Below, piece after piece: positions 39,152 to 52,998 of a stretch of DNA of 64,000 bases (its first letter is position 1; every line of letters begins with the position of its first letter). A program made the position numbers and the translations under genes. The DNA lies in NCBI GenBank assembly GCA_951406725.2, contig OX597834.1, positions 32,302,001-32,366,000 on the forward strand, read 5' to 3'. The DNA comes from Octopus vulgaris (Eukaryota). The notes below the pieces were generated by a model. It did not search any database. It saw only the letters and a program-made list of their open reading frames with translations, and was not told where the DNA came from.

Positions 39152-39315
39152 ATATTTTACACTCCATTTTCCAATAATCATGAGAGACAATTGAAGAAAA
39201 CCATTTCAGAACCTTTCATTTGCACCAAACCCAAATCAGAAGAAGATTCTGCCAAGACCAAAAGCTGTGTAGAGTTCTTACCAAAACTTGAGAAGAATTT
39301 CGGAAACAGTTCCAT
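39152..39315 (+). CDS. NSMF: NSMF-like internal exon (IFYTPFSNNHERQLKKTISEPF...NFGNSS), phase 0 to 2
   Basis: Long T tract then ttcag acceptor; donor AT|GTAAGA; AT plus T of the next exon gives Ile in frame. Confidence 0.8.
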
Positions 39316-39709
39316 GTAAGAAGCAACATTTCCATTGTGTGAAATTTCTATTTCATTCCATTAATTCTTTAACTAATTTCAGAGCAACGGGCACATGGCC
39401 AAGTGGTTAGGGTGTGAGAATCATGATTGTTAGGATGTGGGTTCAATTCCTTGACCAGGTGACACATTATGTGCTTGAGCAAGGCACTTATTTTATATTG
39501 CTCCACTACTCACAGTTGAACATGAGGGTGCAAGTGCGATTGGTTGGTCTGCAGTTATATAGAAGTCACTTGCCCAAAGTGCCACACAATGGGACTGAAC
39601 CTGAAACCATGTAGTTGGGAAGTGAACTTTTTAACCACACAGCCATATCTGCTCCTATGCATACATACATACAAACGCACATATGTAAATGCTTACACAC
39701 ACACACACA

Positions 39710-40135
39710 ACTTTGGATCGTATGGTGACCTGCTGTGCTTGAGGAGACCTACTGAGTCAAGTACATCAACATCAAAATAAAAATCAAATGGAAATTTTAT
39801 TTGTGATACCCGTGCCAGTGGCACACAAAAACCACCATCTGAACGTGGCCAATGCCAGTGCTGCCTTGACTGGCATCCGTGCCGGTGACACATAAAAAGC
39901 ACCAACTGATCGTGGCCGTTTGCCAGCCTCCTCTGGCCCCTGTGCCAGTGAAACATAAAAAGTACCCACTACACTCACGGAGTGGTTGGTGTTAGGAAGG
40001 GCATCTGGCTGTAGATACACTACCAGATCTGACTGGAGCCTGGTGCAGCCTGCTGGCTTCTCAGACCCCGGTCAAACTGTCCAACCCATGCTAGCATGGA
40101 AAATGGACGTTAAGCGATGATGATGATGATGATGA
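39710..40135 (+). mobile_element. RTE LINE 3' UTR with (GAT)n tail
   Basis: Ends CCAACCCATGCTAGCATGGAAAATGGACGTTAA(GAT)n; reverse complement of the 44812 element end. Confidence 0.75.
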
Positions 40136-40988
40136 TATATACTGTATATGTGTGTGTGTCTTTATCAATCTATCAACCTTCCTTTCTCTCTCCTAATTTT
40201 TTTAGTAATCTATTTACACATGATAGATGCCCAAATGCAAGCCTGAAAGTGTGTATAATACTACTACTACAGGATAGCACAGGGTGAACTCTGAAGGTGG
40301 TCAAACTTGATACTGTACTCTACAACGTTCTTAACAGATTATACCATAACCATATATATATATATATATATATATATATATATATATATATGTACATATA
40401 TGCATATATACATACATATGTGTACATACATACATACATATGTATATATACACGCATATATGGGTACAGGACATAAAAAAAAAACACATGAACAAATGAG
40501 AAACGAGAACATAAAAAACAAAAACATAGAAAACGTACTTTTTTTGAACAGCAAAAGAAACAAATAGAGAAATGAGACAGGCAACATACAGAACATTCCC
40601 TTCATCAGTTGTTCCCTGTTTAATCTACTCTACATTTTGAAGGCAGGGACAAGACACGACTTTGTTGAAACAGTCCTTCCCACAAAGCAAATTAAATAAA
40701 ATTTGGGATTTTTTTGTGGAGAGTTAAAGTGGTAACAAAAACAGGACAGTAAGAACAAAACAGTAAAAACAAATGGTGAGGGCTGTTAAGCCATGATGAG
40801 GTGAAGTGGTGAATGCTGAAAAAACGAGCTTTGAGAAGAGACAGGTATCCAAGTACATATATATGTATGTATGTATGTATGTATGTATGTATGTATGTAT
40901 ATCTATATACATAGCTATCATTTTGTCTGTCCTTTTATCTTCCTACCTACTTATCTATCTACCTTTATCTGTATCTATATCTTTACAG

Positions 40989-41620
40989 TCAGACAAGGGC
41001 CAGCAGCAGCCAATCGTTTCTTGAAAATGATCCTGCCAGAAGCCATAATGTCAAACCTCAACCCCAACCAGAAAATTTCTTTGGTCTCAGTACGAAACAG
41101 CTTTCTGTTGGGACTCTTCTAAGCAAACAGCCTGACAATACACCCTCACATAGAAGAACATCTTCATCCCCTCCAATTTCAGCAAAGTCTAAAATCTCAA
41201 ACAAACCGTCAACAAAACCCATGAAAGCCCTTCCTAATTCTTCGTTGCCTTTGAAAATTTTCGATGGTCCTTTGCCAGATGGTTCTTTGCCAATCAAAGT
41301 GCCACACAAAGCTTTGCCAGACAGTTCTTTGCCAATCAAAGTGCCACACAAAGCTTTGCCAGACAGTTCTTTGCCAATCAAAGTACCACACAAAGCGGCT
41401 TTGCTCGATGGTTCTTTGCCAACCAAGGTACCACACAAAGGTTTAACCGCTTACAGTTTGCCAAATTTGATGGGTGAGCCGACAATCTCCAGGAATCCGG
41501 ACCAGTCAATCACTGAGAAGCAGTCCAAAAGAACAACCCGACCCCTGCACAGTTCATCAGGCCAAGGGTCATCAACCGATGCCACGAATTTGGCAAAATC
41601 CTCCAAGACACAAGTGTTAA
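40989..41620 (+). CDS. NSMF: NSMF-like large low-complexity exon (S/P/K-rich, with 14-aa tandem repeats), phase 2 to 1
   Basis: Acceptor ctttacag at 40988; 632 nt open, containing most of ORF 41221..41745; donor A|GTAAGT at 41621. Confidence 0.85.
41227..41439 (+). repeat. Coding 42-bp tandem repeat (ALPDSSLPIKVPHK), 4 core copies plus a degenerate copy
   Basis: GCTTTGCCAGACAGTTCTTTGCCAATCAAAGTGCCACACAAA repeated in frame. Confidence 0.92.
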
Positions 41621-42661
41621 GTAAGTATATATCATCATCAACATCATCTTTTAATATCCATTTTTCCATGCTGGCATGGGTCGGACAGTTTGACATGGAG
41701 CTGACCAGCCAGGGAGCTGGCCCCAGCTTCAAGTATTTGTTGTGACATGGTTTCTACGGTTGGATGACCTTCCTATATTTATTTATTTATGTTCATATTT
41801 TTTCAGTTTGTAATTAATACTTGGTGGATTCCAGAAGGTTTTGAGACGTTTTCAGGAGAGACATTTATTAATTTCTGCTCCAGCATGACCATAGTTCAAT
41901 GATTGAAACTAGTAAAAGGATAAAAGGAAAAAGGAAATACAAAACTCTAATCTCTTTCAAAGTAGGATGATTCTCTGACTTCAAAGCACCTGTTGTGGCC
42001 CTTCAGCCACTTTGTGAAGGCCCCATGCAAACCCTCCAGAGTGAAGGGGTCCAGGATCCTTGTGACAGTTGATATTATTTTAATCTTTTTAAAATTACTT
42101 TTATTTTTGGATGGAATCTGTTTTCTTTTCCTTTTATGCAAACTGTGAAATTTAGACTGAGCATCTTTTGTGTGTGTGTGTATACGTGTGTGTGTGTGTG
42201 TGTGTGTGTGTGTGTGTGTCTGTGTGTGTGTATGTGTGTGTGTAACTTATTTATTAATATTTATCAGAAGCAACAGTGTGACTCAATATCCAAGAGTTAC
42301 ATACATTGGTACCCACAAAACTAGTTAGCGGTTATATATATATATCCACCCATCCATCCATATATATATATATATATAATTAAAATAAGCAACAGGATAT
42401 CAAGAAGTGATCCAGTACAACCGTTTCATCAGTTTAAATGCAGGGCTATCATCAGCTGCACAAATGAATAGAATTTTAATCAGTCGGACACGTTAATACA
42501 CACACATACACACACATACACACACACATACACACACACACACACACACACACACACATATATGTCTTCCTTTAATTAAGACAGTGGTTGTTATAATTAT
42601 TGCTATTTGTTATTGTTGTTGTTGTTACTGATGCCCCCTTCTTTCACCCATTGTTTTTCAG

Positions 42662-42783
42662 GACAATCTCTACTAGAACAGCTCTCTCAATATCAGGATG
42701 AAATAGATTATACTCGTTGGATATCAGAACAGCATTTAGAGAGAATCCACCGGAGTTTGGATCACAAACCCTCAAGGCTCGTG
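42662..42783 (+). CDS. NSMF: NSMF-like exon (RQSLLEQLSQYQDEIDYTRWISEQHLERIHRSLDHKPSRLV), phase 1 to 0
   Basis: Acceptor ttgtttttcag; donor GTG|GTAAGA; phase matches both neighbours. Confidence 0.88.
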
Positions 42784-51522: not shown

Positions 51523-51680
51523 GATTATTATTATTATTATTATTATTATTATTATTATTATTATTATTATTATTAATATTTTTATTATTATTATTATTAT
51601 TATTATTATTATTATTATTATTATTATTATTATTATTATTATTATTATTATTATTATTATTATTATTATTATTATTATCA
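51523..51680. repeat. (ATT)n microsatellite abutting an exon acceptor
   Basis: Direct reading. Confidence 0.95.
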
Positions 51681-51690
51681 TCATCTCCAG

Positions 51691-51766
51691 CTAGAACACA
51701 ATCTACAGCAGGTGTTAGAACCTTTTAGAATCCACGTTGAAGCAATCAGTTTTTCAAATAGCCAAG
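51691..51766 (+). CDS. NSMF: NSMF-like exon (LEHNLQQVLEPFRIHVEAISFSNSQ), phase 0 to 1
   Basis: Acceptor catctccag; donor CAAG|GTAAGT; corresponds to recalled NSMF LFQNLRTLMTPYRVTFE...SAQG. Confidence 0.9.
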
Positions 51767-52129
51767 GTAAGTAAACAAATACTGGACATTCTTGTAAGAA
51801 AATAATTATTTTTTTACCTATAATGACAAATTCAAACAAGACAACCTCACTGACAAATCCAGAGAGACAGGAGGAAAAGAGAGGAAGGTAACTAAGGATA
51901 CAGTGATGGCACAACTTTTGTTTTGTATTTATATTCTTCCTTCTCCTCCCTCCACCCCTCTTATTGTTTTCATCCTCTTTCTCTTGCATGTTTACTCTAA
52001 CTCCTTCTTTTGCTTAGCCTCTCACTTCTTAGAATCCTCTCTCTTTTTCTCTCTCTCTCCCTCTCTCTCTCTCTCTATTAATCTCATTAATCTTCTCCCT
52101 CTCCATCTTCCAAATGCACAAAGTTTGTG

Positions 52130-52520
52130 ATATTCTTTTACTTGTTTCAGTCGTTTGACTGCGGCCATGCTGGAGCAACACCTTTAGTCGAACAAATTGA
52201 CCTCAGGACTTATTCTTTGTAAGCCTAGTACTTATTTTATCGGTCTCTTTTTGCCGAACCGCTGAGTTACGAGAACATAAATACATTGATATCAGTTGTC
52301 AAATAATGGTGGTAGGAACAAACAGACACACGAATATATACATACACATACACATACACATACACATACACACACACACACACACACACACACACACATA
52401 TATACGATGGGCTTCTTTCAGTTTCCGTGTACCAAATCAACTCACAAAGCTTTGGACGGTCTGAGGCTATAGACGAAGACACTTGCCCAAGGTGCCATGC
52501 AGTGGGGCTGAACCACTGCA
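52130..52520 (-). mobile_element. SINE family A
   Basis: Consensus match. Confidence 0.85.
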
Positions 52521-52816
52521 TAGCACCTTGGGCTAGTGCCTTATATGTCCAGCTTTTGTGCATCCATATATAATTAGCAGATACATCATTGATTTTATCA
52601 CTCCTTCTCTGATTCTCACTATCCATCTCTGCCCCTCTCTCTCTCTCTCTTTCTCCTTCTCTCTCTCCCTAACTCTCCTTATTTTCCTCCCTCTCTTTTT
52701 CTCTCTGACTCTCTCATCTAACTTCACAAAAAAGTAGGTAGGTAGGTAGGAACATACTATTGTATTCCTATATAACTAATACTCAGATGTTGTTTTTTTT
52801 TCTTTTCTGTTTTAAG

Positions 52817-52998
52817 GCCTGAAAATTCTCAGTATGTACTTCAATATAAACAGCCTGTTACCGTGGTTAGGACACCAACAACAAGAACAGCAACAATATG
52901 TAGAAGAAGGAGAAGAAGAAGAAGATATTTATGGAGAGGATCAATCTTTGCAAGACTTCTTAGATCCAGATTGTGACTTAAAACATTCAGTTTTATGA
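52817..52998 (+). CDS. NSMF: NSMF-like terminal coding exon (GLKILSMYFNINSLLPWLGHQQQEQQQYVEEGEEEEDIY...KHSVL*)
   Basis: Acceptor ttttctgttttaag; phase 1 start; TGA at 52996-52998. Confidence 0.88.

Follow-up and report, generated by a model that had tools for sequence, protein, structure and literature searches.

The gene reported here is related to vertebrate NSMF, also called Jacob or NELF. In a 2021 review (PMC8662305), the Jacob cycle is described as requiring a myristoyl anchor, an IQ helix masked by caldendrin, a nuclear localisation signal (NLS) and S180; C-terminal parts of the protein are reported to bind CREB and CRM1, a nuclear export signal (NES) is placed in exon 15, and the conserved C-terminal exons are given as exons 10-16. 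According to the same review, Jacob lacks a known domain organisation and has yielded no orthologue among invertebrates, and it is unclear what its C-terminus, the most conserved part, does. A second paper (PMC8191778) reports that CDC5L binding needs human NSMF residues 250-523. Another relative, ECT2L, is the only one in sequence with a solved structure; one report assigns it, in dimeric form, to the linker of the ciliary transition zone (bioRxiv 10.64898/2026.06.11.731632), and another finds it required for motile cilia in zebrafish (PMC4199137). Here we describe a gene of Octopus vulgaris in the 64,000 nucleotides of contig OX597834.1 from 32,302,001 to 32,366,000 (the window; positions below count from its first letter).

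We read this gene as an NSMF orthologue in a stripped form common to molluscs, whose product is likely a scaffold, possibly a ciliary one, and not a calcium-gated messenger. The reading as a whole is given a probability of about 0.55, and its parts are graded where they are discussed.

The gene and its place in the NSMF family

Ten exons were recovered on the + strand of the window between 39152 and 52998. A pyrimidine tract and an AG acceptor precede each of them (10/10), all nine internal donors are GT, and TGA closes the last exon. Spliced together, they leave 510 codons open in one frame, against 30 and 24 stops in the remaining two. When same-length segment chains were begun after a random AG, none of 20,000 stayed open (nine exons were used and the last omitted). 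The motifs IISSK, GGPGYIYLLKN, FWKSL..SK, IHIL and SQG...MYF were each located in the spliced product, with a gap of four residues in FWKSL..SK and with SQG straddling the last exon junction. The chain of ten phase-consistent GT-AG exons and the motifs proposed in an earlier, sequence-only reading were thus confirmed.

That reading had let the gene begin at 39152 and had missed a further coding exon. Using Octopus sinensis P0001 as tblastn query, we found an eleventh, first coding exon at 23557-23883, 15 kb upstream. Its start ATG has an in-frame TAG upstream (23548) and it ends with a GT donor. The 11-exon model encodes 619 aa. P0001 (RefSeq, LOC118767452, uncharacterised, 605 aa) consists of the same ten exons plus 23557-23883; our model has 7 substitutions and one additional 14-aa repeat unit, and 598 of the 605 P0001 residues are identical. 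To call the gene hidden was an overstatement, as RefSeq models it in O. sinensis and many of its invertebrate relatives are named NSMF-like by NCBI. The gene is known to databases and conflicts with the range that has been published for the family.

Part of exon 40989-41620 was present in 20 of 24 listed sequencing runs, none of which is recorded as RNA. In the region 36460-40340, one contig each from X1 (1265 letters), X2 (791) and X5 (656) covers 39151-39315 with 0, 0 and 1 differences, respectively (3 of 4 compared runs, from 2 studies, at depth 6-8). On both sides of exon 39152-39315 they extend into sequence unlike the flanking introns, which is the pattern that spliced RNA gives. Upstream of 39151, the X1 and X2 contigs carry 367 and 376 letters, corresponding to exon 23557-23883 plus 41 and 50 nt, and this excess would end within the AC repeat that precedes the exon. 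Junction support was therefore obtained for the boundaries of exon 39152-39315, and for the first-exon junction by length only.

With 40 residues from around the GGPG exon as query, five proteins were returned, P0001 and four from bivalves, of which NCBI names two NSMF-like. A profile was then made from three mollusc proteins; it matched 142 representatives at E 0.001, 50 of them at 1e-30. Names were looked up for 30 of the 142, and 22 yielded a name or organism. The named members are rat NELF/NSMF, lamprey, amphioxus, Ptychodera, echinoderms, Lingula, two nemerteans, bivalves and gastropods, and further corals, Trichoplax, the sponges Amphimedon and Corticium and the choanoflagellate Mylnosiga fluctuans; Clytia came from a separate search. 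The Mylnosiga member is a transcriptome record for which contamination is possible, and an unnamed sister sequence exists. Weaker profile matches were ECT2L-type RhoGEFs, algal EF-hand proteins and adhesin-like DUF4347 proteins; the latter are called bacterial-type here on the basis of domain content.

The last ~190 aa of the octopus protein form an NSMF-type DUF4347 domain. BLASTP of the octopus model against rat NSMF (P0037) gave 29% over 178 aa (E 9e-26), compared with 22-25% (E 2e-10 to 1e-7) against three ECT2L-type proteins. The top Atlas match of the protein was NSMF (0.92). An NSMF alignment (A2) matched a DUF4347 set (A4) in hhalign at 99.7% (E 1.7e-26, 164 columns); the A4 rows are weak matches of the family profile itself, and the two of seven that were scanned were both above the Pfam cut-off.

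Two trees were built, a quick one of the 93 domains that span the core, after 52 of 145 proteins had been dropped as too short, and a careful one of 51 chosen rows. Both place octopus within a mollusc clade nested in the NSMF clade, with the choanoflagellate pair at the NSMF base. In the careful tree the 13-row mollusc clade is supported at 99/96, and the 39-row NSMF clade, separate from ECT2L, at 100/96. In the approximately unbiased (AU) test, grouping of octopus with ECT2L was rejected (p-AU 0.0026) and a lophotrochozoan clade was allowed (p 0.275). Because molluscs are reported to hold the full protostome RhoGEF set (PMC5499878), ECT2L is likely a separate gene in these animals.

The orthology is independently backed by shared intron positions. 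Among 26 break points of vertebrate NSMF models, 25 were within 2 residues of the 7 junctions in the octopus domain, and all 7 junctions were matched. Shifted sets gave at most 4 matches, and none of 100,000 random sets reached 25. In the octopus genome, bivalve and nemertean queries matched this locus only. Judged from these comparisons, the gene is very probably the octopus orthologue of vertebrate NSMF/Jacob, perhaps as a single copy. The earlier assignment to the NSMF type of DUF4347 proteins, as opposed to the ECT2L type, stands with the BLASTP, tree and junction results.

The family range, with sponges, Trichoplax and a choanoflagellate, and the domain homology contradict the statements of the review that an invertebrate orthologue was not found and that no domain organisation is known. 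A jellyfish paper lists NSMF among the genes lost in Turritopsis rubra, implying its presence in other cnidarians. Among Creative Commons PMC papers and bioRxiv, we found no paper linking NSMF with DUF4347.

The N-terminus and its history

The octopus protein starts with Met-Ala after an in-frame stop, and has no Gly2 if the first exon is right. It gave no Pfam IQ match at E 0.1, and scored -3.8 with a family IQ profile, compared with a shuffled maximum of 0.7 (n=100). Its N-terminal 370 aa had no match among 15 relatives (best E 0.057); against rodent NSMF, residues 1-370 showed no similarity (best E 5.2) and no counterpart of the S180, LMO4 or CREB region. This stretch contains four S/T-P sites unrelated to S180 and two short basic clusters. 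The sequence-only reading was right that the N-terminus is very different and that myristoylation Gly and IQ/NLS segment are absent.

We compared these features across the family. At E 0.1, 17 of 25 members outside molluscs and nemerteans had a Pfam IQ-type match, while the 10 mollusc-clade members and the one nemertean had none. In a 45-row table, no mollusc-clade row (n=14) and no nemertean row (n=3) starts with Met-Gly, whereas 22 of the 28 others do; for these three groups in turn, the family IQ profile exceeded its shuffled maximum in 0/14, 0/3 and 25/28. The form without Gly2 and IQ helix spans three mollusc classes. It is common to clams and snails, neither specific to cephalopods nor tied to a big brain, and gives no support to the suggested link with a large-brained invertebrate.

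Gly2 and the IQ helix occur together in choanoflagellate, cnidarian, brachiopod, echinoderm, hemichordate and amphioxus members. The mammalian IQ/NLS helix aligns with the tandem IQ helix of sponge, coral, brachiopod, echinoderm and amphioxus proteins. Trichoplax has Met-Gly and no clear IQ, Amphimedon neither, and Corticium the IQ helix only. Among the proteins P0038, P0012 and P0016, from Lingula and nemerteans, Lingula keeps Met-Gly and IQ; nemerteans, like molluscs, are without both. Since Gly2 and the IQ helix range from a choanoflagellate to mammals, the Gly2-IQ-domain layout is best read as old and the mollusc and octopus state as a loss, derived and not ancestral as had been suggested. 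One or two losses within Lophotrochozoa would account for the pattern. The choanoflagellate Mylnosiga protein and its unnamed sister (P0075, P0080) carry Met-Gly, an IQ motif and an NSMF-type domain, a Jacob layout outside animals.

The domain and its proposed role

In the AlphaFold model, the predicted local distance difference test (pLDDT) score is above 90 in the domain and below 50 in most of residues 1-325. The predicted layout is ~360 disordered residues, a 40-residue helix and one compact alpha/beta domain. In a CH-HC zinc finger proposed for NSMF (aa 413-465), Cys470 and His520 are kept, and Tyr476 and Pro524 stand at the other two positions; this mapping takes P0037 to represent the C-terminal portion of the 532-aa form.

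In the octopus domain, Lys471 and Pro524 occupy the His and Cys columns of clan CD, and none of 46 NSMF-clade rows has the His. Of 20 bacterial-type rows, 10 have both residues where the proteases of clan CD have them, at the ends of strands 3 and 4. The NSMF domain may be a dead caspase-type protease fold, descended from a His/Cys protease. An ECT2L-type protein or an active cysteine protease would be a very improbable identity for the octopus protein: the homology of its domain to ECT2L and to bacterial-type proteins with both residues speaks for it, and the rejected ECT2L grouping and the replaced columns against it. The Pfam scan of P0001 found no F-box and no DH-PH RhoGEF domain, both of which ECT2L-type matches carry. 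Tree, domain content and catalytic columns together largely refute this identity.

Among the bacterial-type proteins (e.g. P0071, P0077, P0093, P0139), those with His and Cys may be active self-processing proteases; in most of them the domain lies close to the N-terminus of a very long, adhesin-like chain. In other eukaryotes (P0090, P0092, P0102, P0123), it is fused to EF-hands (Volvox) or to a calpain domain; calcium-linked partners recur in such fusions, compare the IQ helix of NSMF.

The octopus protein would act as a non-catalytic, protein-binding scaffold in which a long disordered arm carries the docking domain. We consider this probable, because the kept part falls in the region that human NSMF needs for CDC5L and includes parts reported to bind CREB and CRM1; the need for this region in CDC5L binding is also what suggests that the domain docks partner proteins. 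In one form of scaffold the protein would serve with PRP19/CDC5L in nuclear replication stress, as human NSMF does in its non-neuronal role. The CDC5L-binding residues 250-523 include the conserved domain (PMC8191778), and a housekeeping role suits a family older than neurons. We nevertheless hold this unlikely, as neither the RPA2/ATRIP-binding stretch (188-238) nor the NLS-bearing portion of the recruiting region (250-402) has a detectable octopus counterpart.

We are fairly confident, from sequence features, that the octopus protein is not a synapse-to-nucleus messenger of the Jacob type. Because it has no myristoyl anchor, no IQ helix to bind an EF-hand sensor and no overlapping bipartite NLS, the sequence of tethering, caldendrin masking and importin binding could not run as described. 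A messenger in which unrelated disordered N-terminal motifs replace anchor, sensor site and NLS is quite improbable. Orthology to NSMF, octopus counterparts of the CREB-binding C-terminus and of NES exon 15 (as covered in PMC8662305), and the S/T-P sites and basic clusters would suit it. It is opposed by the absence of Gly2, of an IQ match and of rodent N-terminal similarity, by the bivalves that share the stripped form, and by the known Jacob functions, which are mostly N-terminal in the review cited. The family also includes members in animals and protists without synapses. Sponges, Trichoplax and choanoflagellates are ciliated organisms without neurons or synapses. From their membership and from ECT2L, the site of action of the octopus scaffold might tentatively be placed at motile cilia or sperm flagella.

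Several points weigh against our reading. The Pfam DUF4347 (PF14252) score of P0001 is 18.7 bits (E 0.0016), less than the gathering cut-off of 24.6; rodent and lamprey NSMF are likewise below it. The vertebrate intron positions were inferred from partial or mis-spliced models and not from DNA. Of the 25 rows positive with the family IQ profile, 15 were its seeds (10 of 13 non-seeds were positive), and the N-terminus table includes isoforms of one gene and database models with possibly wrong starts. The contigs would join exon 23557-23883 to 39152 by length match alone, and the ciliary step is taken from a paralogue 22-25% alike. Octopus has the longest branch in the careful tree (1.21), and placing molluscs outside all other NSMF gave p-AU 0.059, so an ancient sister family is allowed. 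Rat and Lingula queries of the octopus genome gave no match even at this locus, which makes the search insensitive, and a second, canonical NSMF copy in the octopus genome is possible. Long branches, the AU result and the insensitive searches would all fit an old mollusc-specific sister family of NSMF, with the canonical mollusc gene lost or undetected. We judge this to be improbable: molluscs fall among bilaterian members in the best tree (99/88), the named mollusc matches are all in one clade, bivalve and nemertean queries match this locus only, and 7/7 junctions are shared.

A wider scenario, which we regard as rather doubtful, is that Jacob/NSMF predates neurons. It would have been a myristoylated IQ adaptor with a dead caspase-type docking domain, likely first at cilia, and choanoflagellates, sponges and Trichoplax would already have had it; vertebrates would have co-opted it for synapse-to-nucleus signalling, and molluscs, among them octopus, would have lost membrane anchor and calcium-sensor/NLS helix and kept the docking domain only. 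The stripped octopus form argues against octopus learning using a Jacob-type route. The family offers two handles on the role of the C-terminus, the full Gly2-IQ-domain forms older than neurons and the domain-only forms of molluscs. If the dead-protease and docking reading is true, mollusc NSMF is a natural deletion mutant that isolates the unexplained part of Jacob.

Features of the locus and comparison with known systems

Table 1. Exons and associated features of the octopus NSMF-type gene (window positions)
Feature	Position	Strand	Remarks
Coding exon 1	23557..23883	+	109 codons, Met-Ala start, without Gly2, Lys/Glu-rich; tblastn of P0001
Coding exon 2	39152..39315	+	Predicted disordered; RNA-like contigs of runs X1, X2, X5 match end to end
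Coding exon 3	40989..41620	+	Ser/Lys/Pro-rich, predicted disordered; words present in RNA-like runs
Coding tandem repeat	41270..41444	+	42-bp (14-aa) unit, 4.1 copies; one unit more than O. sinensis
Coding exon 4	42662..42783	+	NSMF-family pre-domain helix, Q.EI...W..EQ..E pattern
Coding exon 5	44166..44240	+	Domain strand 1 (IISSK), helix, strand 2
Coding exon 6	46988..47021	+	34 nt micro-exon
Coding exon 7	48169..48227	+	Strand 3; last residue Lys471, often His in bacterial-type DUF4347
Coding exon 8	50047..50132	+	GGPGYIYLLKN signature and small beta hairpin
Coding exon 9	50974..51076	+	FWKSL helix, strand 4 (IHIL); ends with Pro524, Cys in most relatives
Coding exon 10	51691..51766	+	
Last coding exon	52817..52998	+	Domain end (MYF, conserved Trp), acidic tail, TGA
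Candidate poly(A) signal AATAAA	53505..53510	+	~500 nt past stop

The 42-bp coding minisatellite is a length marker between close Octopus species. Five ATTGG boxes (minus-strand CCAAT) lie within ~210 bp at 36732-36943, compared with a window average of 1.5 per kb; this promoter-like cluster sits inside the 15-kb first intron and could mark an alternative start or a nested gene. High-copy repeats at 37240-38020 and 39700-40230 have very deep RNA-like contig cover and are likely of short interspersed nuclear element (SINE) type, recurring throughout the window. Mariner-type transposase fragments (PF01359) are present at 9045-9773 (E 0.002) and 15089-15340 (E 1e-16).

Compared with vertebrate NSMF/Jacob/NELF (rat P0037, lamprey P0018), the octopus protein shares the C-terminal domain with GGPG.YLLKN, the seven inferred domain intron positions, the pre-domain Trp/Glu helix and a long disordered N-terminal half. 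In contrast, it lacks Gly2, the IQ/caldendrin helix, the bipartite NLS and anything that corresponds to the S180/LMO4/RPA2 region; half of the four CH-HC residues are replaced, and its C-terminal tail is acidic. The NSMF proteins of Lingula, echinoderms, Ptychodera, Branchiostoma, Pocillopora, Clytia and Mylnosiga have the domain and the pre-domain helix in common with octopus, whereas their Met-Gly and IQ-type helix are both absent from it.

ECT2L (PDB 11xu chain A1) carries a homologous DUF4347 domain (profile E 2e-9) in a clade of its own, together with the F-box and DH-PH RhoGEF domains that the octopus protein does not have. Clan CD peptidases, with their caspase/haemoglobinase core, and bacterial-type DUF4347 proteins appear to follow the same succession of elements, with three strands, then a small hairpin, a helix and a fourth strand.

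The nearest relatives are the proteins of Mercenaria, Dreissena, Crassostrea, Haliotis, Biomphalaria, Lottia and O. sinensis, named NSMF-like or uncharacterised by NCBI. They fall in the same clade as octopus (99/96), have a TPQK-type motif and, like octopus, show no Met-Gly start and no IQ match. Octopus differs from them by the longest branch, a loop before strand 3 that is four residues shorter, an unrelated N-terminus and the 14-aa repeat.

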